From positions 5,597,888 through 5,661,887 of the forward strand of contig OZ250169.1 in assembly GCA_965237955.1 (NCBI GenBank): a stretch of DNA of 64,000 bases. The letters are read 5' to 3'. How positions within the stretch are numbered: the stretch's first letter is position 1; each line of letters opens with the position of its first letter. The notes beneath the pieces are model-generated. The model had not been told where the DNA came from and ran no database searches. It saw only the letters and a list, made by a program, of their open reading frames with translations. The translations under genes and the position numbers were made by a program. Below, in pieces: positions 15,171 through 35,880 of this stretch. Source of the DNA: Candidatus Marinacidobacterales bacterium. Its GTDB lineage: Bacteria > Acidobacteriota > Vicinamibacteria > Marinacidobacterales > SMYC01.

Positions 15171-18107
15171 CTATATCAGCACTTTCTCCGGCTTCAGGAT
15201 CACCCCTTCGTTGCGTCTCCCGTCCATCTTCACGACAAGAGGCGCATCGAAGCGCACGTGCCGAACCGGACCTTCCTCGGCGACGGCCTCTTGCTTGGCA
15301 AGCCAGTCCCAGTCGAGGAACCCCTCGCCCTCTGCCGGGTTCACGGTGAAGTAGCCGACGTTGTTCGAAATCAGGTTCTGGAAGAAATGCGTCCCCTGCG
15401 ACGGGGTGACCCGGAAGTCGCGAAAACCCGCTTCGACGATCACACGCGCGCCGGCAATTTGACTCCAGTTCACCGGGATGCCGAGGTAGGGCTCGCGCGA
15501 GCCCCAACGTCCCACGCCGATGAGAACGTACGGTCTGTTCTCCGCGTGCAGGGCTCGACCCATCTGACCCACGGTGTCGGCGGTGCGCCGGCTTTCCTTG
15601 CGCTCGAAGCGGTGATAATCGACGACGATCGCGTCCTTTAGGTCGGTGAGCAGGCCGTTGCCGAGCACGCTTCCGCTGTGACAGATCGTTTCGCTGTCGT
15701 CCACGTCGCCGATCTCGATCTCCTCGAGCTCTTGCGCCAAGACCATAGGGCGCAGCTGAAGAAAGCCGAACTCCCGTCGTCCGTCGGGGGTCGGTGTGAG
15801 GTTCACCGCGAACTCGATCTCGACCGGAGCACGCGTTCCTTCGCCACCGATAGCCAGCAGCGTTTCGAGGATTTCGGCGAGTGGGAACAGACCGTGCTTC
15901 AAAAGCGGAGCAAACGTCACCACGCGCGGCCCGGCACGGGATACGCCGTCGTAGAGAGCGTCGTTCTCCGCCGAGTACGTCGAAGCGACGGCGGCGAGAG
16001 TGCCGTCGGTTTCGGCGCTGTCGAGCTCCCAGGACGCGAGCTCGACGCGATCGGTCTGTCGCAGATCGATGGCGTAGAAATCGCGTTGTGAAGTTTTCAA
16101 GATCGCGGGGAGCTCGATGGGCACATGGCGCGGGAACTTCGGGCTGAACCGAATGGCGCTTCCACCTTCCTCCACGGTTTTGCCGAGGCCGAGAGCCACC
16201 GCGACCATACCGTCGTCGTTTTTGGCCGGCGGCGTCGGATAGAAGTTGTACGAGCGTGCCGCGCCGGCGAAATCCGGGTAGAAGCGCTCGCCGTGAGGGG
16301 ACCCGACGACCCGCTGGATGATGACGGCCATCTTTTCTTCTTCCAGCCGGTATTGAGTCGATTCGAGATAGATTTTGGCACTCGAGGAGAACGTGGACGC
16401 GTACACGCGTTTGACCGCGGTCAGGAGCTGCTCGAGTCGGGTTTCGAGCCTACGGTGGTTGTTCGCGAGCATGTACGTCTCGTAGACGCCTGCGAACGGG
16501 TGATGCTGGGAGTCTTCGAGGAGGCTCGATGAGCGAACCGCGAGGGGGTAGCGAGCGCGGTCGAGAAACACTTTGAGATCCTTTTTGAGCTCGCGGGTAA
16601 ACGTCGCCGCCTGGAATCGTTTGCCGAGCTCGTCGTCACGGTCGCATTGGATCGCGAAGTCGGCGAGGTCGTTGTCCTCCATGAAGCGGTCGAAAACCTC
16701 GGTGCCGATGACCATCGACGTGGGCACCGACACCGTGACGCCGGGAAACTCGCGTTCGATGTGGAATTGGCTCAGCAAGTTGTTGACGAAAGCGATGCCA
16801 CGGGCCTTGCCGCCGAGCGAGCCGCCGCCGACGCGATAAAAGCTCGCGGAGGCGTCGAAAGTGTTGCGGTCGAAATCGACGACCTGGCCTCGATTGCGCT
16901 CCTCGCGGTACTCGGCGATGGACTTGATGACCGACGTCCGTAGGTCCTCCAGTGTCGCGTAGTCGGAGACTTTGAGTGGTCGAAGTTTTGCCGCGAGCTG
17001 GAGCTCGGTGCGTGCCTTCAGCCACGTGGAAAAGTCGTTCCGCTCGCCGTGGTAGGCGATGCTCTCGGCAGGCACCTTCTCGAGCATGTGCTCCAGGGTC
17101 TTGAGATCCGACGCGTGCCCGATCTCCGTGCCATCGGGAAGCCGGAACACGAAGTCGCCGATACGAAGGCTTTCGACCATGAACTCGCGCACGTGGTTGA
17201 GAAGGAGCGGGGAGCCTTTGAGAAGGAATGACGCACCCACCGAACGCGCTTCGGTTTCGTTCTCCTTACGACTCGATTGAAGCATGATGGGCACGTCGGG
17301 CCGCACCGCGCGGACCGCTCTGGCGAGCTGAACGCCGGCGTCGGCGCGCGCGGCGCCGTCTCGCGGGAATTGAATGTCAGAGATGATTCCGAGAATGTCG
17401 TTCGGGAAACGGTGGAAGTAGTCCCACGCCTCCTCGTAGTGGTCGCTCAGGAGGATCTTGGGTCGCGCGCGAATCCGCATGAGCTTGTCCGTCAAGTTCA
17501 AGCCTTCGGGCATGAGGCTGTGAGAATGCTTGACGAGCTCGGTGTAGATGACCGGGAGAAACGAAGAGTAGTAGCGAATGTTGTCCTCGATGAGAACGAT
17601 CGCGGGAACGCCGACGATGCCGGTGTCGTGGTCGACGTTCATTTTGTCTTCCATGTACTTCACGATGGCGAGTAAGATGCGAACGTCGCCTTGCCACAGG
17701 AAGATTCGCTCGATGGACGTGACGTCGTAGTTGTCGATGAACTGTGCGAGCTGGCGGCGGTCGTACGCGAGCAGCACCACCGGGGTTTCGAGCCCCTGGC
17801 GCCTGAGCTCCGCGATGAGCTGCAACACGTTCATGTCGCCGAGCTCGATGGACGTGATGATGAGGTTGTAACGGCTTGAGGCGTGGGCGAGGGAAAGCGC
17901 TTCTTTGCCCGAGTACACGTGGGTGATGTTGGGTGTGTGGCGTAGGTTCAGCTCGAGGAACTCGCCGAGAAACTGTTCGCTGAGTCGTCCGTCTTGCGAA
18001 AGAATGTAGTAGTCGTAGAGCGACGATACGAGGAGGACGTCCTGAACGCGGTTTTGGATGAGATCTTGGAAACCGTGGAATCGGTCGTTCCGCGTTGCCA
18101 TCAGCAA
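15171..18107 (-). CDS. Two-domain signalling protein: N-terminal receiver-like (REC / pseudo-REC) domains fused to a PEP-utilising-enzyme / pyruvate-phosphate-dikinase N-terminal ATP-grasp domain.
   Basis: The N-terminal ~350 aa show two CheY-like folds. The first has Ser at the phospho-acceptor position (ITSIELGDM) and the second has [11 protein letters not shown]. The C-terminal ~600 aa match the PPDK_N nucleotide-binding domain (GGKARGIAF..., [12 protein letters not shown]..., VIIQRVVGS). Confidence 0.65.
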
Positions 18108-22293: not shown

Positions 22294-22803
22294 TCAATTG
22301 TCTAGGCACAACCATTTTTTGAGCTTCGCCATCTGTTCGGACGTCAGAGACTGGTCGTCCAGGATTTGCACGAGGTGTTCGCGATTGCGAGCGAGCGGTT
22401 TGTAGCCGCAGCCGTCGAAGAGCTCGGGGCTTGTTTGCTCGAGAAGCGGGCGGGGGTAGTCGCGGCACATACCCGGCGGTGACTCGTAGCTGTCACAACG
22501 TCTCGTGTCCACGTCGAAGTGGGTGCATTTGAAGATGAACGCCTTGTCCTCACGGCGCGCTTCGACGAGGTCGAAGCCATTGATCTTGGCATGCCACCAC
22601 AGGAAAACCTGGCGAATGAAAGGGAAATACCAAGTGAGCTTGCCGACTCGGATGCCGGGCTCTTCACAGCACTTCGCACAGCGGACGCATTCACCACCGA
22701 GATCGTAGCGGACATCGGCCTGAGCTCGGTGCAGCCACAACCGGGCGTAGTAGACGCCGAGGCTGATGCGCTTCACGCTCCGCAAAAACGGACCGTCTCT
22801 CAT
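22294..22803 (-). CDS. YkgJ/UPF0153-family cysteine-cluster (zinc/iron-chelating) protein.
   Basis: CVRCAKCCE motif plus the downstream CTHFD...C...C pattern typical of YkgJ. Confidence 0.7.
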   Translation of the reverse strand: MRDGPFLRSVKRISLGVYYARLWLHRAQADVRYDLGGECVRCAKCCEEPGIRVGKLTWYFPFIRQVFLWWHAKINGFDLVEARREDKAFIFKCTHFDVDTRRCDSYESPPGMCRDYPRPLLEQTSPELFDGCGYKPLARNREHLVQILDDQSLTSEQMAKLKKWLCLDN

Positions 22804-22821: not shown

Positions 22822-24591
22822 TCATCGAAGCAGCGTCGAGATCTCCTGGATGCGGCGCTCCAACGCTCGAGATTTGTCAGCGGCGCCGTAAAGCTCGCGC
22901 AGCTTTTCGGGGATGAACATGGGGTCCGTGCTCTCGCGGATGGCAACGAGTTGTTGAAGCTCTTTTTCGAGACCGTAGTCCGGTGTTCGAAAATGCTCCA
23001 GGGTCTCGCGAATGTGCTCGGCCGTCGGGGCATCGGCGCCTGCGATCGCGGCGCGTCGAACGCATTGGACGAGAAGGCTTTCGATGTCCGCACCCGAAAG
23101 CTCGGGGGGCAGGGGAGGAAGAGCTTGCTCGTCGATTCTGACGTCGTTCTTGCGCGCCATCGCCATGAACATTTCTCGACGGGCCGCTTCCGTTTCGGGC
23201 GGGAAGAGAGGAATGTGCACTTCGCACCGTCCCTGGCGCTTCAAGTCGACAGGGAGCAGATCCGGCCGGCAGGTGAGAAGCACCCACAGAATTTTTCCCC
23301 GGTAGCGCGTGTCGCTCATGAGCGACGAGATCATCGCGAACATGCGACTCGACGTGCCGCTGTCACCACCGGCGGACCGGCTTCCCAGCGCCGCGTCGGC
23401 CTCGTCGATGACGACCACGACCGGTCCGAGCGCTTTGATGACCGACAACACTTTTTGGAGATTGCCTTCCGAGCTTCCGACCCACTTGCTCCGCAGATTC
23501 TTGAAGACGATGGTCGGGATGCCGAGACTGCCGGCTAGACACATCGCGGTAAACGTCTTGCCGGTTCCGATCATACCGCAGAGCAAATAGCCCATCGGCA
23601 ACGCTTCCAGGCGTCCGTCTTTGAAAAGCCGAACGTCTTGCTCGAGCCGCTCCTTCACCGCGTCGGGCGCGACCACGGTATCGAGATCGTAGCTCGGCGC
23701 AACGAATTCGACGAGACCGAAACATTGTTTTTCGATGAGCTCTTTCTTGGCTTCGCGGAGTCTCCCGAGGTCGACGTGATTGCCTTTGGCGCCGGAGCTT
23801 CCGACAGCCTGGCCGAGTCCTATTAGCGTGAGTCCGTTGGCCTCACGGGCAACGTCTCGAGCAGCCTTCGCACCTTCGACGAGCGTGCGCGCGTAGTTTT
23901 CGCGCGTAGCCTCGTCCGGCAGATCGACCTCGACCTTGGAGATGAACGGGTTCTCGACGATCCGGCGGTTGACGTCGCCAAGCGCGTCGGCGACGAGGCA
24001 GAGCGTGACGTCCGCACCGCGGATGCCGGGATCGTTTGCCCAGTTGAGGACTTTGATGAGGGTCGCTCCGAGCTCGCCACTCAACATCGAGCCGTCGACC
24101 GCAGGCGTGATCGTCTCGATATAGCGGATGACGATGGCGAGGCTTTTGCGATTCCCGTTTTTGGGTGTGTCGACGAGCTTGTGAAGGATGTAGCGGTCGA
24201 GGAGCTCGAAAACGAGCTTCGGATCCTTGGCGCGCGAGTTGGCGTAGCTGGTCCCGCTGATGAGGTCGATGGCTTTGAGGGTCTTGTGAAAGTCTTCCTG
24301 CATCGCCTGTCGCCGGTCGCTGTCGCCGGGCGCGAGGAAGCGAACGCCGCTCCCACGGTCGTAGCTCAAGACGATTTCGCGCTGGCCGAAGAGCTGTGTC
24401 GCCAGGTAGTGCTCGAGAGATACAAACTCGTCCGCATCCCGCCGCCCGGGCCCGTTGGGCCCGGTGAGGACGACGGGGACGAGATCGTGGACGTTGCCGT
24501 GGAGGAGAAAGACGCTCGCCGCACCGCTGACATAGCTCAGAGCGAGCTCACGCGCCCATTCGGGAGCGCTACGGCCCAAAGGGTTATTCAC
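22822..24591 (-). CDS. Classical-clade AAA ATPase with a large N-terminal domain of unknown function (~350 aa).
   Basis: Walker A GMIGTGKT, Walker B VVVIDEADA, and an SRH-like region with arginine fingers (TCRPDLLPVDLKRQGRCEVHIP). The ATG at 24696 overlaps pspA, so the start is more likely the GTG near 24591. Confidence 0.7.
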   Translation of the reverse strand: MNNPLGRSAPEWARELALSYVSGAASVFLLHGNVHDLVPVVLTGPNGPGRRDADEFVSLEHYLATQLFGQREIVLSYDRGSGVRFLAPGDSDRRQAMQEDFHKTLKAIDLISGTSYANSRAKDPKLVFELLDRYILHKLVDTPKNGNRKSLAIVIRYIETITPAVDGSMLSGELGATLIKVLNWANDPGIRGADVTLCLVADALGDVNRRIVENPFISKVEVDLPDEATRENYARTLVEGAKAARDVAREANGLTLIGLGQAVGSSGAKGNHVDLGRLREAKKELIEKQCFGLVEFVAPSYDLDTVVAPDAVKERLEQDVRLFKDGRLEALPMGYLLCGMIGTGKTFTAMCLAGSLGIPTIVFKNLRSKWVGSSEGNLQKVLSVIKALGPVVVVIDEADAALGSRSAGGDSGTSSRMFAMISSLMSDTRYRGKILWVLLTCRPDLLPVDLKRQGRCEVHIPLFPPETEAARREMFMAMARKNDVRIDEQALPPLPPELSGADIESLLVQCVRRAAIAGADAPTAEHIRETLEHFRTPDYGLEKELQQLVAIRESTDPMFIPEKLRELYGAADKSRALERRIQEISTLLR

Positions 24592-25342
24592 TGGATTCGG
24601 ACGCGGCCTCTTTCTGGGGGCCGACGGTTTTCTCGGTCGCTTCCGACGAAGGCTCGGCGAGTCCTTGCTCGATCTTGAATTGAGCCAGGAGCTCACCGGC
24701 TGCGACTTGGTCCGCCGCCTGCTTTGCCTTGAGCGCGTCGATGCCCTGATCGCTCAAGTCCGACGCGACCTTGGACCGGGCTTTCGCTTTGTTGATCTGA
24801 TCGTCGACCCGGCTCATGATGGCGTCGATATCAGACGACACATCGAACGAGGTATTGAGGGCGCCTGCCGTCTCGGAAACTTCGGCGAGCGCTTTCTCCA
24901 TCTGGAGCGCCGCCTTCTTCTTCTCGAGGTCCTTCTTGCTGTTGCCGATTTCAGTGAGAGCCGCCTTCATCTTCAGAAGGTTGTTCTCGTAGTTCTCTTG
25001 GTGCTGGGCGAGCTGCTCGTTGTTGCTCTCGAGCCCGTCTTTGACTCGAGAAAGCTCCAGTGCGAGCTGGCCGGCCATCTCTTCCTGATTGGCCTTTAGA
25101 TGGTTCTTGATCTGTCCGGTGAGGCTCGAGATCCGTGAGGTCTCGCTTGCGACTTGTGCCTCCACTTTCAGAACCAGTGCCTGATAGGAGATGAGCCCCT
25201 GGCGAGCCTCTTTCAGGCGTTCGGTAGCCTGCTGGAGTTTCGCCTCAGCCAGGGGGATGACGTGCTTGTCCTCCATCTCGGTGACGGACTTGTTGAACAA
25301 GGCGTACCAGACTGCTTGGATGCGCGCGAAAAGTCCCATCAC
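24584..25342 (-). CDS. pspA: PspA/IM30 (Vipp1/LiaH) family protein of the ESCRT-III superfamily.
   Basis: MGLFARIQAVWYALFNK... N-terminus resembles PspA (MGIFSRFADIVNANINALL). The ~250-aa product is an all-helical coiled coil with a charged C-terminal tail. Confidence 0.65.
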   Translation of the reverse strand: MMGLFARIQAVWYALFNKSVTEMEDKHVIPLAEAKLQQATERLKEARQGLISYQALVLKVEAQVASETSRISSLTGQIKNHLKANQEEMAGQLALELSRVKDGLESNNEQLAQHQENYENNLLKMKAALTEIGNSKKDLEKKKAALQMEKALAEVSETAGALNTSFDVSSDIDAIMSRVDDQINKAKARSKVASDLSDQGIDALKAKQAADQVAAGELLAQFKIEQGLAEPSSEATEKTVGPQKEAASESSE

Positions 25343-25555: not shown

Positions 25556-28500
25556 TCACGTAGTGCTCTCGTCGGCCTCGGCCTCGGCTTCTTCAGTGTC
25601 GGTCATGTTCGATAGCGCCGAGACGTTGATCTTTTCGAGGGCCTCGACGAGCTCGGGGATGTCGTCGACGTATTCCAGTTTGCTGATGAGTGCCTTGATG
25701 TTCGGATCGTCGACGCCACGGTAGCCGCGGAAGCGATGGGCCATGAAGCGCATCAGCGGGATCAGCGTACCCTCGATGAGGTAGGACTCGCGCGAAATGA
25801 GCTCGTAATCCGCCGGCGGCGCCTCGGGTTCGGCGTCGGGCGCGACTCGCTGCTTTTGACCGTTCCCGAACGCCTCGAGGAGCTCGTGCAGCTTTTCGGT
25901 GTACGGTGAGAGGTCAAGCTGGACGTCTACCTGCGCTGGTTTGGCCGCGGCGGAAAACGCGGCCAGGTCGGGATCGACGGACAGTGCGGCTGGGCGCGAG
26001 CCAGCTTTCTCTATAGCGCGGTCGATGCTCTCGCCGATGCCTTCGAGGTGCTCGGACACCATGCTGAGCTGACCGGTGAGGCGTGTTGCCGGGTCATCCT
26101 CGCCACTGCCCATGCGTTGGATGCGGACGTAGCCCTTCTTGATCTCCTCCCACCGTGCGCGCTGAGCGTCGCTCAACCGTCCCCGCATCTCGCCGAGCTT
26201 GAGGAGATTCTCCTCCGCACCGGTGGTGAGCGTCTGTGATTCACCGAGATAGTGGTCGTCGATGAGGTTCTCGAGCTCTTCGTCGTTCATGGCCGGCACG
26301 ATCTTCTCCGTCAGCTTGTTCATATTGCGGTAGCTCCCCTGGAGACGGAACGGGGGCTCGGTGCGATAGGCATCTTCTTGCGAGGCGGAGCGGATGTATT
26401 GCTGGTTGACGGCGAGCAGGGTCTGCTGCACCTTCAAGAGCTTTTTCAGCACCGACTGGATCTCGCCGATCTCCACCGCCGAGTAGCCGTGCTCGAGCTG
26501 GTCGGATTGAATCGGCTCTCCCTGAGCCATGCGCACGAGCATGACGATATCGTTCTGCTCTCGTGTCGTCAGCGGTGCGAGCACGTTGTTCGACGTCAGT
26601 GAGTTCTCGATGTAGGAGAGCGCGAACAGATCGCCTTTGCCTTCGAGAATGTCGCCGAGGTTATAGGTGTCGGCGCGGTTGGCGAGCATGTCCGGGATCT
26701 GGAATTTCTCGCCTGACTCGGTGTACGGGTTTCCCGCCATACACACGATGAACTTCTTGCCTCGCAGATCGTAAGTACGGGTGCGTCCCTTCCATACACC
26801 TTCCACTTTACGCTGAGCGTCGCACAAAGAGATGAACTTCTGGAGGAACTCGGGATGCGTGTGCTGGATGTCGTCGATGTAGAGCAGAACGTTGTTGCCC
26901 ATCTCGAAGGCGAGATTGAGCTTTATGATCTCCTGACGCGCGGTCGCGTTCCCTGCCTCCGCGGGATCGAGTGACGTGACCGAGTGGCCGAGCGCGGGCC
27001 CGTTGATTTTCATGAACACTAGGCCGAGGCGGTTGGCCAAATACTCCATCAGCGTCGTCTTGCCGTAGCCCGGTGGCGAGATGAGAAGGAGCATGCCCAT
27101 CAAATCGGTCCGCTTGTCTGCGCCGAGCGCTCCCATTTGCTTGGCGAGGTTGTCGCCGATGAGAGGCAGGTAGACGTCGTTGATGAGGTGGTTGCGCACG
27201 AACGACGACATGACTTTGGGCTTGTATTCGTCGAGGCGCAGGGCGTCGCGCTCTCGTTCGAGGACGGCGTGCCGCGCTTTCTGGAAGTCACGAAAGCCGG
27301 GAACGAGGCGGTAGCGGAAGTGGCCGAGGCGCGACAAGAACTCGTCGAGGTGGAGCTCCATGCGGCCTTGTTGAATCCGTGGATGCTGGCCTAGCAGTCC
27401 TTCGATACTCAATTTCGCCTGCGCGCTCGATGTCTCCCGGCTCACCTTGCCTTCGAACAAGATCGCGACCACGGCTTCTTGAGCGGCGCGCGCCGTTTGA
27501 TTGGTCTTCTCGAGAAAAGCCGTCACCCACGCGAGGGCAAGATCGTAAGCGCGCACCGGTGATTCTCGAAGCCCACGAAGATCCTGCTCAAAGTCACGCT
27601 CGGCGCTGGATTCGCGCAAATGCTTCTCGAACGCCTTCTTGAGCTCGTCGGCTTCCGCGCTCAAAACGAACTTCTGCGGCTCACGCGCGATCTCTTCGAG
27701 GAGATAGGCACCCGCGCGGCGCGCGGCGCGCTCGGGCACGTGGATGCCGAGCTCGGCCAGATGCTCGGCGATCGCGGTGTTGAGCTCGGAGCCGAGATCG
27801 GTGAGCGCGTCACTTGTTTCGAAGTGCGTCCGCAGGCGATGCAAGCTCTTCGCCTGGTTTTCCCACGTCGTCCGCTTCTTGCGGTCCGGGTAAAGAGCCC
27901 AGAACACGGTGGCGAGGGCTCGCGCTGTGGGCGTGAACGCAGGAGATCGGCGCTCTCGTGCATGCCGAGAGTTTTCTGGAGGATGAGCGTGGCGTCGGCA
28001 TCGTGGAGGCCGCGCTCGTAGCCTTCGTCGTAGCGCTCGGCCGCGTAGTCCCGCACGATGGCGAGAAGCGCGTTGTCCACTCGGGTGGCCTCGTGAAGCT
28101 TGGCCAGTGACAGTCCGGCGTCGCCGATCTCGGCGTCTTCGAGAATGCAATAGGCGAGGTACTCCGAACGATAGACGTCGTCGGTTTCCGAGACCAGTTC
28201 TTGCGCCCAGAAGTCACGCGTTTTGGCGAACTCCTCGTCGTCGATCTGCTCATAGAAACCGGTGCCACTCAGGTGGAACGCCATACCGTCTTCGCGCGGC
28301 ACCATCGTGAGCTCCAACGGCTGGGTGTTGACGCTGAAGCGATGGCGTCCGAGCTTGATGACGTTAGCGCCGTCTTCGTAGATTTCTCGCCGATCGCGCA
28401 GACCTTGCGCGGCGTCTTCTTTGGCGGCTTTGAGCCGGCCATCGAGCTCGTCGGCATGCACCGAGTTGCCGAGCTCTCTCAGGTTGGCCGCGGTGTTTCG

Positions 28501-30936
28501 TAGCTTGGCGACCATGGGGTCCGAAGCGAAGTATGCGTTCAAAGCGTCGGAGCTTTCGAACTTCTCGGCGCGTCTGGTGACGCTCCCGAGGATGCGATCC
28601 GCCGCATGCATCAAGTTCTGCGCTCGTCGTTGGCGCCGGTCGACGAGCGATTGCTTCTTGGAGCTGAACGCTTCGTAGATCTCTTCGCGCTTGGTGGTGA
28701 GCTCGGTCACGAACTCGTCGAACTCGGAAAAGCGGGTTTCGAGGTCTTCGAGCTGCAGCATGAGCTTCGAGAGTTGCTCGTCGCACTTCTCCGGCGAGTC
28801 GGAAAGCGCCAGCGCGCTGGTGACGCTTTGGCTCAGCAGCTGAAACTGGACGCCGAACTCGGCCACGCCTTCTTTGCCGAGAAGCTCTTTGCGCCGGTTG
28901 GCGATGAGCGCCCGCACGCGGTTGAGGCTTCCCATGATCTCGGAGATGTTGCTGAGAATCTGGGTACGGACGGTCGCATCGTCGATCTCGAGCGAGCCGA
29001 TGACGTCGGTAAGGAGGTCCAGGCCGTCACTGAGCTCCTGCAACGACGCCTGGTGGTCGTCCGCCTCGGTGACTTTCGAGAGTCCGGCGACGCCTTCTTC
29101 CAGCTCCGCCGCGCGTTGGTGGTAGGGAAGCAGTGCTTCGGCTTTCAACAGGAAGTCGACCGCCCGCTCGCTCACCGTATCGAAGCGCTCGATAATCTCC
29201 GCTTCGAGGGCGTCGATGTGCGTCAGGTCGACGTAGCGCACTTCACGGAGCGTGATCAGGTGGCCCCGGGCCGAGCGCAGGCTGGCCAGACAGGCGACGA
29301 ACTGATCGATCGACGTCCACGAATCGGGATAGATCGTCCGGAAGAGCTCCTGGATTTTCTCGGCGGCTTCTGCGACTGCCTTTTTCGCGTCAGCACGGAG
29401 CGCCTCGACTTTCTCGAACTCGTCGATGATGCTCTCGGCGGTCTCATGAACTTCGTCGAGGACTTCGCGCAAGTTCCCGATTTCGGCCTCGTCGAGCCAG
29501 TAGTAGCTGTCGATGACGCGCGCGGTAGCGGCGACGAGGTCCTCGTACTTCTGGCGCGTCGGCTGCTGCTCGTCGACCATGCGGCGGATGCTGAGGCAAT
29601 CGGAGACGCCGCGAACGAGCTCGGCGTTGCCGACTTTTTCGAGAAACGATCCCGTGGGCGGCAGCGCTTTCACGTGCTCGTCGCTCATGAACGGCGTGCG
29701 CCACAGCTGCATGTTGTGCACCCGCTTGGGCTCGTCGGTGTCGGCGCGGAAGATGATGACGGTGCCGTCAGGGAAGAGACTGAACCCGTGACAGGTGAGG
29801 GGATTATCCACTTCCTTCCGGATCATGTTGTACGGGAGCAGAATCGTGCGCCCCGCCTCGCGCTCGTGGAACGCGTACAGCACGTCCTCGCCGTTGGGGG
29901 AGCGGATGCGGCGCAAGTACTCCATCCCTTGGATCTCGCGTTCGAAAGATTTGGTGTGTCCGCTCTGCAGGTAATAACCGCCCGGGAAAATGATGCCGTG
30001 GTCTTCGGGAAGCTGGACACAGGCCTGACCGATCGCATCGATGCGATCGACTTGTTGGGTCCGGGTGTTGAACACGAGATATCGATACTCGGTCTCGCGG
30101 TAGGGGAGGACCTTGAGCAAGATTAGCGTGCCCACTGTTGCGTAGTGGACTTGGGCGTCGTCGAGCGCCTGGTCGGCATCGAGCACCGGCTCGCGATAAA
30201 TGCCCTGGCCATCCTCGGTGTTGTTCTCGACTTTAATTGTCAGGTCGCCGCCGAGCGTCTCGACGAAGACTTCGTCGAGAATGTTGACGTGGGGGTAGTG
30301 GCCCTGGATGTGGTCCTCGCGCACCGTCGCAGTCCATTCGAAATCGTGGGTCGGAGGGAAGACGTGGTCACGCTCGCCGCGGTTGTCGATGTAGCTGACG
30401 GCGCCGTCGGGTGCTACCGCCCAGCGAAACACGCGCACGTCGTCAATCTTCTCGCCGATTTGGAACACCGCGAGCAGCTTTTCGCCGACGCTTCGCAGCT
30501 GGAGGAGCTTGGTTTGCTCATAATAACGATAGAGCTCCTGGAACTCCTCGATGAACTTGGGGTCGGAGAGGAAGTAGCCGGGCGCATCCTTCGAAACACT
30601 TCGCAACGAGATACCCTCGTCGGTCTTCTCGAACGTATGCAGGCTGAAGACGTCTTCGATGTGCGTCTGGCGCTTGAGGCCGATGAAGACGTTGTAGCCG
30701 AACAGAAGGTAGTTGCCGACCTCCTTGATGTCCCGGGGAACACAGTTGTTCTCGGTACGGATCCGTTCGTTCCCGAGAACGGCGAGATCGGTGCCGCCGA
30801 AAAGCTCGAGGCGTTTCTTGTTGAGCGTCTCCGCCCGCTCGGCCAGGACTTTCCCGTGGCCGAGAAGGCGGTCGCGAATGATCTCGTAAGTGCCGCGCTC
30901 GATCTCGACCTTTTGGACGTCGGTGCTGGTGCTCAT
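25556..30936 (-). CDS. Giant (~1,790 aa) protein: N-terminal beta-rich domain, long coiled-coil region, an AAA_5/MoxR-type P-loop ATPase domain and a helical C-terminal domain. Its reading frame is interrupted by an apparent frameshift near 27920-27940.
   Basis: ORF 27661..30936 is protein-like up to ~GMHESADLL and then degenerates into Arg/Ser-rich off-frame text. ORF 25556..28150 becomes protein-like from ~ALATVFWALYPDRKK. The downstream part carries Walker A LLISPPGYGKTTL, Walker B NVLLYIDDIQ, and sensor-1/Arg-finger FIVCMAGNPYTESGEKFQIPDMLANRAD, matching MoxR/AAA_5. Confidence 0.6.
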
Positions 30937-30968: not shown

Positions 30969-33032
30969 CTAGAGCCTGACGTCGTCGATGCCGAGTGCCT
31001 TGGCCTGACGCTGGAGCTTCTTGAGCTTCTCGAGGTCGTCTCCTCCCGTGCCGGTGTCAATTTCAGTGGCGAGCTTCGCCAGGAGCGCGCCGATGGTGAT
31101 GTCTTTCAACGTGCCGCCATCGATCCCGGACTCCCGCATCGCCTGACGGATCTCCTGGATGATGTTCTTGTCGCCGTTCATGAAGTCCTTGGCGAGGCCG
31201 GAGATGACATCGCTCTTTTCTACGAGCTCGTCGATGCCCTTGCCCATACCGATGGAGTTCACCATACGGTCGAGGAAGGCGCCGTCGCCGCCGACGATGT
31301 CGATGTCGGCGGATTCGAGGGCCGTGGCGAGGATCTTGGCCTTGTGCGCGGCAACGCTCTCCCGAGCTTGGATGGCTTCGAGCCCGAGTACCTTCTCGTT
31401 CTCGATGCGCAGGCGGTACTCTTCGTGCGCCCGGCTGTCCTTGTCGAGAGCTCGCATCGCTTCGGCCTTTTCGGCAATACCCTTGGCTTCGGCGGCGAAT
31501 TTGTCGGCGACAGCGTGCGCGTGGGCCGAGCCCTTTGCGCGCACGACGGTAGCCTCGGCGGTGCCCACCTTCTCGACCGCGGCGGAGTCGGCTTCGCGAA
31601 CACGTACTTCCGCGAGACCGTGCTTCTCGGAGGCGATGGCGTCGGCTTCTTTGACGCGGGCGGCGGCGAGACCTTGGGCCGCGGATTCGGCCTGGACGCC
31701 TTCGGCGATGCGAATCTTGGACTTGGCTTCGCGATCGGCGGCTTCGAGCTCGGCGTCGGCCAGGGTGACGAGCTCGACGGCTTTGTGCTTCGCGGCCTGC
31801 TCCTGAGCTTCGGCGGCCTTGATGTCCTTGACGAGCGCTTCCTCGGCCTCGGCCTCGGCGGCGATGACCGTCGCTTCCTTGTTGCGCTTCGCTTCCTCGA
31901 CGACCTGAAGCTCTTTGATGCGCTCCTGCTCCTCGACGACGGTGCGCTCGACGGCGACACGCTCACGGATGACGTCTTGGATCTCTTTGCGCTCGACTTC
32001 GAGAGCTTTCTCTTTGTCGATGCGTAGAAGCTCGACCTCACGTTCGCGGATTACGGCTTCGAGCTGGCGGTCTTTCGCGACACGCTCGGTCTCGACCCCG
32101 ATGACGCGCTCGCGGTTTTTCCCAGCAACCTGGACTTGTCGGTTCTTGTTCTCTTCCGCGACCATGACTTCTTCGTCGGTCTTGATGCGGGCTCCTTCGG
32201 ATTTCAGCCGTTCTTCCGCCTGGACTTGCATCAGTAGCGCGGTTTCGCGGGCGCGGACGGATTCGATCTCGCGCTGTTGCTTGGACTTCGCGTCGGCCTC
32301 TTCGCGGTCGAGCTCGAGAATGACTTTGGCGCGCTCGACATCTTGTTTCTTGATGGCTTTTTCTTCGTTGTTCTCGAACTCGTTAGTCTGGACGTGCTCG
32401 ACCGCGGTGAGCTCGGTGATGCGGCGGATACCTTGGGCATCGAGGATGTTCTTGGGGTCGAGGTGCTCGAGGGGGGTCTGCTCGAGGTAGTCGATCGCGG
32501 CGTCTTCGAGGACGTAGCCGTTCAAATCGCGGCCGATGAGCTCAATGATGGCGTCGCGAAACTCATCGCGTTTGGTGTAGAGATCGACGAAGTCGAGCTG
32601 TTTTCCGACCGTTTTCAGCGCCTCGGAGAACTTGGCGCTGAAGAGCTCGTCGAGCGTTTCGGGGGAGGAAGCGCGGGCGCAGCCGATTGCTTGAGCGACT
32701 TTGATCACGTCTTCGACGCGCTTGTTGACGCGCACGAAGAACATGACTTTGATATCGGCGCGAATGTTGTCGTGGCAGATCAGTCCGTCCTTGGCGCGGC
32801 GGTCGATCTCGATCGTCTTGACCGAGATGTCCATGACCTCTGCTTTGTGGATGACCGGCAGAACGAAAGCGCCGGTAAACGTCACCTCGGGCTCTCGCTT
32901 CATTTTGTTGACGACGAGCGCCTTGCCCTGCTCCACCTTGCGGTAGAACTTGGACACCATCATCAGGAATCCCCAGCCGATGATGATGAGCGCTACGACA
33001 CCCACCGCACCTAGAAACACTAAATCCATCAT
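30969..33032 (-). CDS. Flotillin: an SPFH/band-7 domain followed by a long EA-rich coiled coil, YqiK-like.
   Basis: N-terminal TM helix, an SPFH domain (KALVVNKM...FVLPVIHKAEVMDISVKTIEI...), then ~300 aa of E/A/R/K heptad repeats characteristic of flotillins. Confidence 0.8.
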   Translation of the reverse strand: MMDLVFLGAVGVVALIIIGWGFLMMVSKFYRKVEQGKALVVNKMKREPEVTFTGAFVLPVIHKAEVMDISVKTIEIDRRAKDGLICHDNIRADIKVMFFVRVNKRVEDVIKVAQAIGCARASSPETLDELFSAKFSEALKTVGKQLDFVDLYTKRDEFRDAIIELIGRDLNGYVLEDAAIDYLEQTPLEHLDPKNILDAQGIRRITELTAVEHVQTNEFENNEEKAIKKQDVERAKVILELDREEADAKSKQQREIESVRARETALLMQVQAEERLKSEGARIKTDEEVMVAEENKNRQVQVAGKNRERVIGVETERVAKDRQLEAVIREREVELLRIDKEKALEVERKEIQDVIRERVAVERTVVEEQERIKELQVVEEAKRNKEATVIAAEAEAEEALVKDIKAAEAQEQAAKHKAVELVTLADAELEAADREAKSKIRIAEGVQAESAAQGLAAARVKEADAIASEKHGLAEVRVREADSAAVEKVGTAEATVVRAKGSAHAHAVADKFAAEAKGIAEKAEAMRALDKDSRAHEEYRLRIENEKVLGLEAIQARESVAAHKAKILATALESADIDIVGGDGAFLDRMVNSIGMGKGIDELVEKSDVISGLAKDFMNGDKNIIQEIRQAMRESGIDGGTLKDITIGALLAKLATEIDTGTGGDDLEKLKKLQRQAKALGIDDVRL

Positions 33033-33063: not shown

Positions 33064-33819
33064 TCACGATTCCTCCGTAACTTTGGCGGCTTCGGTGAGC
33101 GCTGCGTCCACCGGGCCTATGAAGAAGACCCCTTCGGACGGCTCATATCGGTAAACGAGTGCCTGCGCACCTCGTGTCAGCCCGTTGTCTTGCGGACAAC
33201 GGACCTCGGCAACGAAACCGGCACCGCCGTCTTCGATCTCGGCGCGGCCGAAATTTCCATCGACGCGTGCCGAAAGCACGGTGCATATTTTGCCGATGAG
33301 CGACGCGCGGCGTGGAGCTTGCTGCGTAACGAAGAGCTTGCGGAAGGGCCGGGAGCTGATGGCCGCCATGATGAGAGCGCCGAAACCGGACGTAACGGCG
33401 ATGGCGAGTCCAACGATCACCGTCGCGGCCAGCGGTCCCAGGAACCTGGTGCTCAAGTAGCTGAGGATCCAGGCCCAGAAGAGCACGAACGTGCCCACGA
33501 TCGTGATCGGCATCCCGCGGACGCCCATGGCGTTGAGTAGACCGCCCAAAAGGCCACCATCCTCGCCGTCTGCGGCGTCGGCGTCGGCAGCGCCCTCGGC
33601 AGCCCCTTCCGCGACACCTTCAGCACTGGCGTCGAGCGCGCCGTCGATTGATTCAGCCGCGCCTTCGACCCCGCCGTCCGCCACTCCTTCGATCGACTCG
33701 AGCGCCCCGTCGAACGCGGCATCCATGCTGTCGAGGCCGAGGACGCTATCGAGAAAGTCGAGATCGAGTGCGCCGAAAATCACGACCATCCAGTACAGTG
33801 AGCGCCATCGCCAGGGCAC
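33064..33819 (-). CDS. YqiJ/NfeD-like membrane protein (DUF1449) with an OB-fold C-terminus, partner of the flotillin.
   Basis: TM helices, an acidic GA-rich linker, and a C-terminal NfeD-like beta domain (GKICTVLSARVDGNFGRAEIEDGGAGFVAEVRC). It precedes the flotillin gene by 31 bp, as yqiJ precedes yqiK in E. coli. Confidence 0.6.
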   Translation of the reverse strand: MPWRWRSLYWMVVIFGALDLDFLDSVLGLDSMDAAFDGALESIEGVADGGVEGAAESIDGALDASAEGVAEGAAEGAADADAADGEDGGLLGGLLNAMGVRGMPITIVGTFVLFWAWILSYLSTRFLGPLAATVIVGLAIAVTSGFGALIMAAISSRPFRKLFVTQQAPRRASLIGKICTVLSARVDGNFGRAEIEDGGAGFVAEVRCPQDNGLTRGAQALVYRYEPSEGVFFIGPVDAALTEAAKVTEES

Positions 33820-34599: not shown

Positions 34600-35880
34600 A
34601 TGCGCATCGGCGAGAACGCTAGAATCTTTTTTTCCGAAAGAGAAAAGAGCGTTCCCGCGATGCGCGTTACTACGTTAGTCAACAAGCTCATCGGATTGCA
34701 AGGCCTGTGGGTCCGAGGTTTCCACTTCCAGGCGGACAAAGCCAGAGTGGTGGTGGATGTAGTACCACGGAGGAGGAAGCCTCTGTGCGGGATTTGCGGA
34801 CGAAAGGTCCGCAAGAACAAAGATCGCTACAATCGCTACTGGCGGCACTTGGACCTGTTCGGAGTCCGGACCTATCTTCGCTACTCGATCCGACGAGTGG
34901 TATGTCGGCGGTGTGGAGTGGTCAGAGAAAAGGTGCCTTGGGCCGACAAGGGAAGCCGCTTTACCAAAAGCTTCGAACAAGAGGTAGCGTGGCTGGCACA
35001 GAGGACGGACGTCAGCGCCGTAGCGAACTATTTCCGAGTGACGTGGCGTTCGGTGCGACGGATCATCCAGCGAGTGGTTGCCGAGCAGCGGGATGAGCGG
35101 CGCGAGCTCGATGGATTGCGGGTGATTGGGATGGACGAGATCAGCTACCGCAAACGCCACAAGTACTTAACAGTGGTAATAGACCATCTCAGCGGCCGGG
35201 TCGTCTGGGCGGGAAAGGAGCGCAAGGCCAAGACGCTGCTGCGGTTTTTCCGCAAGCTCGGACCACAAAGAGCCGCGGAGCTCGAAGCGGTCAGCATGGA
35301 CATGTGGGAGCCGTACATAACTGTCGTCGGCAAAAAGGCTCCTCAGGCACGGGTGATCTTTGACCGCTTCCACATCGTCAAGCATCTGAACGAGGCCGTG
35401 GATAAGACCCGGCGCGAGCTGGTGCGCGAGCTCAAAGGGACTGCCCGGCGCAACCTCAAGAACACCAAGTTTCCCCTTCTCAAGGCCAAACACAACCGCA
35501 GCGCGAAAGACAAACGGGTGCTCCGCGAGCAGGTGCGAGCTAATCGTCGCCTCTACCGCGCCATGCTTCTGCGCGACGACTTCATGGACCTCTACACCTA
35601 CAAAACCGAGACATGGGCCAAGAAGTTTCTCCGAGGATGGCTGCGGCGCGCTATGAGCTCGAGGATAGAGCCCGTCAAACGCGCGGCGAAGATGATCCGC
35701 AGCCACTTCGATGGCGTCATCGCGTGGGTCACGTGGAGACTCAGCAACGGCCGACTCGAAGGAATGAACAACAAAATCCGGCTGCTGAGCCACCGCAGCT
35801 TTGGACTCCACTCTGCCGAAGCTCTCATCAGTCTCGTCTACCTAAACTGTGGCGGTCTCACCCTCGAGAGGATCCACTGA
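34600..35880 (+). CDS. ISL3-family transposase.
   Basis: The full-length (~420 aa) sequence matches the ISL3/IS204/IS1001/IS1096/IS1165 transposase family (zinc-finger-like CGICGRK...CRRCG N-terminus, DDE region with IGMDEIS... and SNGRLEGMNNKIR). The start is probably at MRVTTLV (34660). Confidence 0.8.
   Translation: MRIGENARIFFSEREKSVPAMRVTTLVNKLIGLQGLWVRGFHFQADKARVVVDVVPRRRKPLCGICGRKVRKNKDRYNRYWRHLDLFGVRTYLRYSIRRVVCRRCGVVREKVPWADKGSRFTKSFEQEVAWLAQRTDVSAVANYFRVTWRSVRRIIQRVVAEQRDERRELDGLRVIGMDEISYRKRHKYLTVVIDHLSGRVVWAGKERKAKTLLRFFRKLGPQRAAELEAVSMDMWEPYITVVGKKAPQARVIFDRFHIVKHLNEAVDKTRRELVRELKGTARRNLKNTKFPLLKAKHNRSAKDKRVLREQVRANRRLYRAMLLRDDFMDLYTYKTETWAKKFLRGWLRRAMSSRIEPVKRAAKMIRSHFDGVIAWVTWRLSNGRLEGMNNKIRLLSHRSFGLHSAEALISLVYLNCGGLTLERIH

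Follow-up and report, generated by a model that had tools for sequence, protein, structure and literature searches.

A PspA gene overlapping a two-domain AAA ATPase gene in a Marinacidobacterales genome: a candidate bacterial analogue of the ESCRT-III/Vps4 pair

Complete ESCRT systems are restricted to the archaea and the eukaryotes, and their ATPase Vps4 derives from Cdc48 (Makarova et al. 2024). Bacteria possess ESCRT-III-superfamily proteins in PspA and Vipp1, and it has been asked whether an equivalent ATPase exists for these proteins (Liu et al. 2021). Recent structural papers and reviews know of no Vps4-like ATPase for PspA/Vipp1 and leave the mode of disassembly or remodelling open; a 2025 review states that such an ATPase ‘appears absent in bacteria’. 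A comparative-genomic observation of PspA beside an AAA protein has been in print since 2020/2024, yet is missing from that review. Ravi et al. (2024, mSystems; PMC11237479) described a ‘PspA + inactive-AAA/active-AAA’ neighbourhood and proposed for it an ATP-dependent remodelling of the ESCRT-III/Vps4 (Snf7/Vps4) kind. The published gene order is PspA, PBPB+OmpA, a transmembrane (TM) protein, an ATP-binding cassette (ABC) ATPase, TM+Snf7 and inactive-AAA+AAA, with AEY64320.1/AEY64321.1 and the OGG56892.1 operon as examples. The same paper describes a flotillin/beta-propeller-AAA+/YqiJ module, there paired with CesT/Tir-PspA. A full-text literature search found no experimental study of the PspA-linked ATPase family, and nothing on a link between Ycf46 and Vipp1. 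Here we analyse a PspA–AAA gene pair in a 64-kb stretch of contig OZ250169.1 from Candidatus Marinacidobacterales bacterium. This stretch is called the window; all coordinates are positions within it, and the genes discussed all lie on its (-) strand, apart from one transposase gene.

The window pair resembles the system of Ravi et al. in having a two-domain ATPase, the N-terminal domain predicted to be inactive, beside PspA, a match made by architecture and by gene order and description. Relatives of the pair, such as locus L003 of the survey described below (ATPase 57% identical), have the published six-gene order of OGG56892.1. In the window, by contrast, the system is reduced to PspA and the ATPase, with overlapping genes, and the pair lies right behind genes for a probably YqiJ-like protein, an SPFH protein and a DUF3686-AAA+ protein, whereas the published module of that type goes with CesT/Tir-PspA. 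An analogy with ESCRT-III and Vps4 had been put forward for this locus in a sequence-only reading, which was thus a rediscovery, since PMC11237479 holds the same pairing and the same proposal. Comparative genomics speaks for the proposed role, while the kinship with Vps4 that accompanied it is not supported. On balance we lean towards a two-gene module in which a PspA polymer would be disassembled or remodelled by a dedicated hexameric AAA protein translocase.

The two genes are closely joined. The open reading frame (ORF) list gives a 252-amino-acid (aa) ORF at 24584..25342(-) followed by a maximal ORF of 624 aa at 22822..24696(-). The first opens at GTG 25342, but the true start is likely to be ATG 25339, because the resulting N-terminus, MGLFARI, aligns with residue 1 of Vipp1 (MGLFDRL); the PspA gene would then occupy 24584..25339(-) and encode 251 aa. 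The junction reads ...tccaGTGAATAAccc..., with the PspA stop codon TAA at 24586..24584 and an in-frame GTG for the ATPase at 24591..24589. An ATPase gene starting there (22822..24591(-), 589 aa) shares with pspA the 8-nucleotide (nt) overlap GTGAATAA at 24584..24591(-). The overlapping arrangement proposed earlier can thus be read directly from the DNA. GTG 24591 as the start is supported by the ATPase homologues, which are 573-610 aa long and cover 98-100% of the 589-aa product, the nearest of them starting MNNPLG. It is also supported by an independently made gene call on L081, a metagenome contig 98% identical to the window, which gives a PspA of 251 aa and an AAA protein of 590 aa with the identical 8-nt overlap. 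Among the loci compared, the literal overlap is limited to the window, L001 (gap -7) and L081. In the other relatives ~20-550 nt apparently separate the stop codon of PspA from the first ATPase residue that aligns. The overlap had also been taken to imply translational coupling. No convincing Shine-Dalgarno sequence precedes the GTG at the usual spacing, the nearest GAGG lying 15 nt upstream, which fits coupling by re-initiation but is not proof of coupling. Promoter and terminator scans from 21.3 to 34.6 kb gave results no better than those for shuffled sequence.

The product of the upstream gene scores 37.1 bits against Pfam PspA_IM30 (PF04012; cut-off 33.9), matching profile positions 1-211 of 220. 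This is barely over the cut-off, and membership was therefore checked by other means. In phmmer searches it matches the Vipp1 chains of 8qfv and 7o3w at full length from residue 1 (E 4e-5). Its AlphaFold2 model contains a long helical hairpin, alpha1/alpha2-3 (H3-82, H86-160), with a predicted local distance difference test score (pLDDT) above 90 in the hairpin. Sequence and model together give an N-terminal amphipathic helix alpha0 and, behind it, the alpha1-alpha2/3 hairpin. The best Foldseek matches to the model are Vipp1 (7o3w/6zvr), then SynPspA and E. coli PspA, with CHMP2A-CHMP3 lower. PF04012 is found in nearly all of 110 PspA homologues, many of which are named phage shock protein A in their sources; homologues from ATPase-linked loci score 34.7-65 bits. 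The PspA identity assigned to this protein earlier is borne out by profile, phmmer and fold: it is, on these comparisons, a genuine member of the PspA/ESCRT-III superfamily, and one that may self-assemble on membranes into rings, rods or carpets. No second PspA was found in the 64-kb window.

The adjacency of the two genes is widely conserved. Relatives of the ATPase were collected by a scan of GTDB r232, one genome per species, which gave at least 531 loci; Singulisphaera sp. PoT, Fodinibius sediminis and Gracilimonas mengyeensis are candidate culturable carriers among them. Linkage was analysed in the best 80 of these species-level loci, which are mostly from Planctomycetota, with others from Acidobacteriota, Gemmatimonadota, Myxococcota, Balneolaceae/Rhodothermales, Riflebacteria, Kuenenia and one Acidimicrobiales. 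The sequence-only reading had staked itself on the adjacency recurring in other genomes; when the ORFs of the 80 loci were searched with an iterated PspA profile, PspA was found on the ATPase strand within 10 kb in 65 of them, in at least six phyla, and the upstream proteins sampled in linked loci are PspA_IM30 by Pfam. PspA is directly upstream on the same strand (< 800 nt) at 45 loci, 3-5 kb upstream on the same strand and in the same operon at 17, farther upstream on the same strand at two and downstream of the ATPase at one. Among the 15 loci in which no PspA was seen only four have good context, because 11 have less than 5.5 kb of upstream sequence (six with < 1 kb, five with 1-5.5 kb) and four have 5.5 kb or more. 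Pairwise identities of PspA and of the ATPase correlate with r = 0.89 over 61 loci; the two proteins are passed on together.

Some relatives have a further ORF at the PspA position. At L029 (6292-6768), L055, L057, L068, L071 and L072 (Balneolaceae, Fodinibius, Gracilimonas) a second ORF of ~150-175 aa comes right after a full-length PspA; these short ORFs match the PspA profile with E ~1e-27 to 1e-30, and the one scanned with Pfam (L029) has no match.

The ATPase is a classical AAA protein, as had been claimed for it: it scores 77-79 bits against Pfam AAA (PF00004), with the match at residues 371-496 of the 624-aa ORF, or 336-461 counted from the GTG, the numbering used for this protein throughout. 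The match lies in the C-terminal half, the active module D2 (22822..23700(-)), which carries a Walker A motif GMIGTGKT (23577..23554), a pore loop 1 KWVG (23487..23476), a Walker B motif VVVIDEAD (23418..23395), a pore loop 2 GDSGTS (23367..23350), a sensor-1 region LLTCRPD (23280..23260), arginine fingers RQGRCEV (23238..23218) and, at its end, conserved C-terminal helices (22971..22825), all on the (-) strand. Across 60 homologues G342/T343/G344/K345, D396/E397, G372, T440, R452 and R455 are invariant, K369 and V371 of pore loop 1 are at least 90% conserved and the GDSGTS stretch is conserved. In a phmmer alignment the D2 motifs line up residue by residue with those of VAT D1 and D2. D2 looks like a working, substrate-threading motor, because Walker A and B, the pore loops, T440 and R452/R455 are conserved and matched to VAT.

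D2 is preceded by a domain of a different character. An AlphaFold2 model of the ATPase (pLDDT 85, predicted template modelling score 0.82) gives residues 27-290 a strand-helix order that mirrors that of D2, and in Foldseek ~600 columns of the whole chain align with the tandem-ring ATPases Rix7, p97, AFG2/Drg1 and NVL. On this predicted structure, residues 1-297 (23701..24591(-)) form a degenerate AAA-like domain, here called D1*. It has LHGNVHD (24504..24484(-)) at the P-loop position and AIVIRYIE (24138..24115(-)) at the Walker B position; lacking both a P-loop and an acidic Walker-B pair, it would therefore not bind nucleotide in the usual way. An ‘inactive AAA’ label for the modelled domain agrees with the annotation of Ravi et al. 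(2024; PMC11237479). P10, W12, A13 and Y20 belong to a conserved surface of D1* or of the N-terminal helix. Residues 1-297 have zero Pfam matches at E <= 1, and hhalign of D1* against D2 was not significant (Prob 1%, E 0.05), so that its AAA nature is not demonstrable by sequence.

ATPases containing D1* are, judged by sequence searches, a distinct family of moderate size: when 1.84 billion cluster representatives were searched with D1* by itself, 750 proteins matched at E <= 1e-3, of which 244 reached E <= 1e-10, the full-length members being mostly 560-610 aa. D1* also occurs duplicated, in D1*-D1*-D2 proteins of ~820-856 aa (P0234, P0254, P0265). The N-terminal extensions of these three were considered as possible PspA-ATPase ‘Rosetta stone’ fusions and proved to be extra D1* copies, not PspA. 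In another protein, P0342, D1* is joined to an FtsH-type AAA domain and M41 peptidase, where it replaces the usual membrane anchor.

A specific kinship of the ATPase with Vps4, spastin or katanin is not supported, unlike its assignment to the classical AAA proteins. Fold comparison did not separate the AAA subclades. Against PDB sequences, VAT, Cdc48, p97 and the D2 of AFG2 match best (E ~1e-30 to 1e-25). Among NCBIfam profiles CDC48 leads (59.6 bits), followed by PAN (50.7), IteA (49.9), FtsH (44.3) and CdvC/Vps4 (31.4), all far below their cut-offs. The ATPase is thus outside the membership of both Cdc48/p97/VAT (TIGR01243, 59.6 bits against a cut-off of 802.65) and Vps4/CdvC (31.4 bits against 650). 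Pfam scans found no MIT domain and no match to Vps4_C or a beta-domain. An R-R-R-F finger type is characteristic of the meiotic clade (Vps4, katanin, spastin), and an RQGR type of Cdc48, FtsH and PAN. The RQGR of the window protein aligns with the R-x-G-R of VAT. By profile rank, best sequence and fold matches, two-domain layout and lack of an MIT domain, the ATPase groups with two-ring ATPases of the Cdc48/VAT/Rix7/Pex1 type, outside the Vps4/meiotic clade. As a motor of Cdc48-like, two-ring descent that lacks an MIT domain, it can be no more than a functional analogue of Vps4, and is neither its orthologue nor its homologue.

What the pair has in common with Vps4/CdvC and ESCRT-III is the arrangement of an ESCRT-III-superfamily polymer gene followed by a classical-clade AAA gene, the aromatic pore loop and arginine fingers of the motor, and a PspA C-terminal tail that is conserved where the MIM motifs of ESCRT-III sit. 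It differs in the missing MIT domain, the missing Vps4_C or beta-domain and the presence of two AAA-like domains rather than one, and the analogy is functional. With Pex1/Pex6, Rix7/NVL, Cdc48/p97/VAT and AFG2/Drg1 it shares the best sequence and fold matches and the tandem D1-D2 layout. In Pex1/Pex6, D1 is unable to hydrolyse ATP and D2 is the threading motor. The same division is predicted for the window ATPase, with a D1 unable to hydrolyse ATP and a D2 motor. In contrast to the tandem-ring ATPases, no double-psi barrel or other N-terminal substrate domain precedes D1* in the predicted structure, D1* is far more degenerate than their first domain (no Pfam match, no P-loop) and there is a family-specific conserved C-terminal helical extension. 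The ATPase may thus be regarded as a family of its own, with a modelled architecture nearest to two-ring ATPases of the Pex1/Pex6 type with a non-hydrolysing first ring.

A possible point of contact between the two proteins is the PspA tail. In an alignment of 55 PspA homologues, all from ATPase-linked loci, a pattern A-L-x-x-F-E/K-I/V-E-x-G-L-x-x-P ... K-x-L/V-G-P is conserved past the helical core; in alignment A3, L218, F221, E224 and G226 are invariant. In the window PspA the tail spans residues 216-241 (nt 24694..24617(-)), beginning with the clade motif ELLAQFKIEQGLAEP (residues 216-230; 24650..24694(-)) and ending in KTVGP (24617..24631(-)). This motif is a candidate recognition element for the ATPase.

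The favoured mechanism, a translocase acting on the PspA polymer, can be set out in steps. PspA would use its N-terminal amphipathic helix to assemble on inner membrane that is stressed or curved. The ATPase would form a double ring in which, as in Pex1/Pex6, D1* is a scaffold or docking ring and D2 the motor. This ring would grip the conserved C-terminal tail of PspA, and the D2 pore would thread PspA subunits, which would thereby be extracted from the polymer and recycled. The outcome would be disassembly, turnover or remodelling of the PspA polymer, the job that Vps4 does for ESCRT-III. The family identities, the intact motor, the gene overlap, the conservation and co-inheritance of the pair and the conserved tail are results of the analysis; that the two proteins touch, which protein is the substrate and in which direction the ATPase acts are the parts of this mechanism that we infer.

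Several points weigh against this mechanism. PspA is a candidate substrate on indirect grounds, and linkage and co-inheritance show neither contact nor the direction of action, assembly or disassembly. The ATPase showed neither an MIT-like domain nor any other that could be recognised as PspA-binding, and the AAA-like assignment of D1* depends on a predicted structure. The four PspA-less loci with good context were still negative under a relaxed PspA search. A weak ATPase activity is intrinsic to PspA rods and alters their diameter, and the J-protein CDJ2 is reported to hand Vipp1 to HSP70B; a dedicated AAA protein is therefore not obligatory. Finally, in most relatives a transporter or a second coiled-coil membrane protein of the operon could be the real client.

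This last point arises from the wider operon. At the loci with PspA 3-5 kb upstream, the genes in between encode a periplasmic binding protein that carries an OmpA domain at its C-terminus, a binding-protein-dependent (BPD)-type permease, an ABC ATPase and a membrane-anchored coiled-coil protein of 279 aa. Two fixed six-gene orders occur, for example at L003:4468-11752 and L004:9228-17883 and at many other loci. Acidobacteriota and Gemmatimonadota have PspA first, then binding protein+OmpA, permease, ABC ATPase and TM coiled-coil protein, with AAA last; in Planctomycetota, the AAA gene comes right behind PspA and the other four genes follow the ATPase. The ATPase might then be a quality-control or extraction motor for membrane proteins, in the manner of Cdc48, FtsH or Msp1, whose clients are other envelope proteins (the transporter, the OmpA-domain binding protein, the coiled-coil protein) and for which PspA is a membrane sealer or adaptor. 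Such a motor would suit the shared operon, the closer matches to Cdc48/VAT/AFG2, PAN and FtsH than to Vps4, and the D1*-FtsH-type M41 peptidase fusion in P0342. Yet none of the four extra genes is in the 64-kb window, and it is PspA that is the partner kept wherever the operon is reduced to the pair, as in the window, at L001, L002 and L081 and in several Planctomycetota; the conserved tail of this PspA clade also suggests a specific interaction. We regard an extraction motor for other clients as unlikely.

The canonical Psp system of Gammaproteobacteria, PspF-PspABC, likewise combines the PspA effector with an AAA+ protein, but there PspF, a sigma-54 enhancer-binding AAA+ protein that carries a GAFTGA motif and a Fis-type helix-turn-helix (HTH), acts as a transcription regulator and is inhibited by PspA. 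A PspF-type protein was considered for the window ATPase and rejected: it has no Sigma54_activat or HTH match, and GAFTGA occurs in no frame of the window. PspF, PspB and PspC had all been said to be missing. For PspF this stands across the 64 kb by the lack of GAFTGA; for PspB and PspC the neighbouring ORFs scanned with Pfam contain no Psp family besides PspA_IM30, no window-wide search having been made.

The canonical system nevertheless suggests another way in which the ATPase could act on PspA, which is to regulate it without threading. It would keep PspA in a low-order, inactive state or nucleate its assembly, loosely as in the inhibitory complex of PspA and PspF, with ATP governing release and not unfolding. 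The reported binding of PspA to the AAA+ hexamer PspF is a precedent, and a nucleotide-free D1* ring could serve as a docking platform. The family-wide conservation of KWVG, GDSGTS and both arginine fingers is, on the other hand, the pattern expected of a translocase, and no DNA-binding or sigma-54 element is present (no GAFTGA, no such Pfam match). Regulation without threading seems to us improbable, and a PspA-threading translocase is preferred.

The IteA score noted above bears on a last reading, that the pair belongs to an IetAS-related system of anti-phage defence in which the AAA protein is the sensor or effector ATPase. The IetA/IteA matches are weak and sub-threshold (49.9 bits in PADLOC and 49.9 bits with NCBIfam NF042959), the latter tenfold under the curated cut-off of 510 bits. 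No other defence model matched the cluster, no IetS-like protease or protease family was found among the neighbouring ORFs scanned, and the conserved neighbours of the ATPase are PspA and transport/membrane proteins. The profile scores alone make a defence role unlikely, and with the gene context we consider it very remote.

Upstream of the pair lies a second module. Directly upstream of the PspA gene is a gene for a giant ATPase with DUF3686 (708 bits), DUF7902 (96 bits) and AAA+ domains (25556..30936(-); AAA/AAA_5 on the downstream ORF). Before it comes a gene for a membrane-anchored SPFH/flotillin-like protein of 687 aa (30969..33032(-)) with one N-terminal hydrophobic segment. Band_7 (PF01145) matches its residues 1-230 with 45.9 bits, a match obtained only with the N-terminal fragment; the full-length protein had no match in Pfam, NCBIfam or PDB sequences, plausibly because of the Glu/Ala/Lys-rich stretch behind the SPFH domain. 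The gene directly upstream of it (33064..33819(-)) encodes a 251-aa, 3-TM protein with hydropathy segments at 11-29 and ~102-156 and a C-terminal soluble domain. No Pfam family matched this protein above cut-off; by analogy with the modules of Ravi et al. (2024; PMC11237479) it is probably YqiJ/YuaF (NfeD)-like. Of an SPFH, NfeD-like and DUF3686-AAA+ module, Band_7 and DUF3686/AAA are thus present, and the 251-aa protein fits by its TM pattern only.

The giant ATPase gene is frameshifted near 27936 (27928-27937), leaving two overlapping ORFs, 27661..30936 and 25556..28150. The frameshift is a one-base deletion relative to the L001 orthologue, and L001 (1807 aa) and L081 (1797 aa) both have the gene unbroken; either the assembly is wrong here or the gene was inactivated very recently. 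As in the flotillin/SPFH-NfeD operons (YqiJ/YqiK, YuaF/FloT; PMC11237479), the 3-TM, SPFH and DUF3686-AAA+ genes stand in a row directly upstream of PspA. The published version, however, has CesT/Tir-PspA (YjfI/YjfJ), whereas the window PspA belongs to the AAA-linked clade and there is no CesT/Tir gene; the frameshift in the giant ATPase is a further difference. Among the loci fetched, only L001 and L081 share with the window the position of the PspA-ATPase pair directly downstream of this module. In this lineage the pair probably works with a flotillin membrane-microdomain scaffold. A fuller hypothesis joins these elements: the PspA-linked two-domain AAA family would be the missing bacterial counterpart of Vps4, of independent Cdc48-like origin, docking on the PspA tail, threading PspA and cooperating with the flotillin scaffold and the giant AAA+ protein. 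As a whole we give this a little less than an even chance.

Other genes flank the cluster. A gene for a putative metal-binding (Fe/Zn) CxxCxxCC protein of the YkgJ type (22294..22803(-); PF03692, 24.2 bits, cut-off 23) lies 18 nt past the ATPase stop and has the same place in L001 and L002; in L081 this interval contains just two short called genes (57 and 72 aa). Farther downstream, at 15171-18107(-), is a gene for a 978-aa protein made up of a response-regulator receiver, PPDK_N (phosphoenolpyruvate-utilising, ATP-binding) and DUF5752, with a 976-aa gene of the same Pfam families at the matching position in L081. The opposite strand carries, just upstream of the cluster, an ISL3-family transposase gene (DDE_Tnp_ISL3, 239 bits; 34600-35880(+)).

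The window locus is a further case of the published and experimentally untouched PspA-AAA module, and its own feature is the junction with a flotillin/DUF3686-AAA+ module. Beyond the published description, the present work puts numbers on the linkage, places the ATPase with Cdc48-like two-ring ATPases and not in the Vps4 clade, and contributes a conserved PspA tail motif, the two operon orders and the lineage-specific junction with the flotillin/DUF3686 module. A PspA-AAA pair that is widely conserved and co-inherited offers a concrete candidate, easy to test, for the missing disassembly or remodelling activity. If the proposed role is true, ATP-driven remodelling of the ESCRT-III type would be bacterial as well as archaeal and eukaryotic, and would have been reached by convergence.

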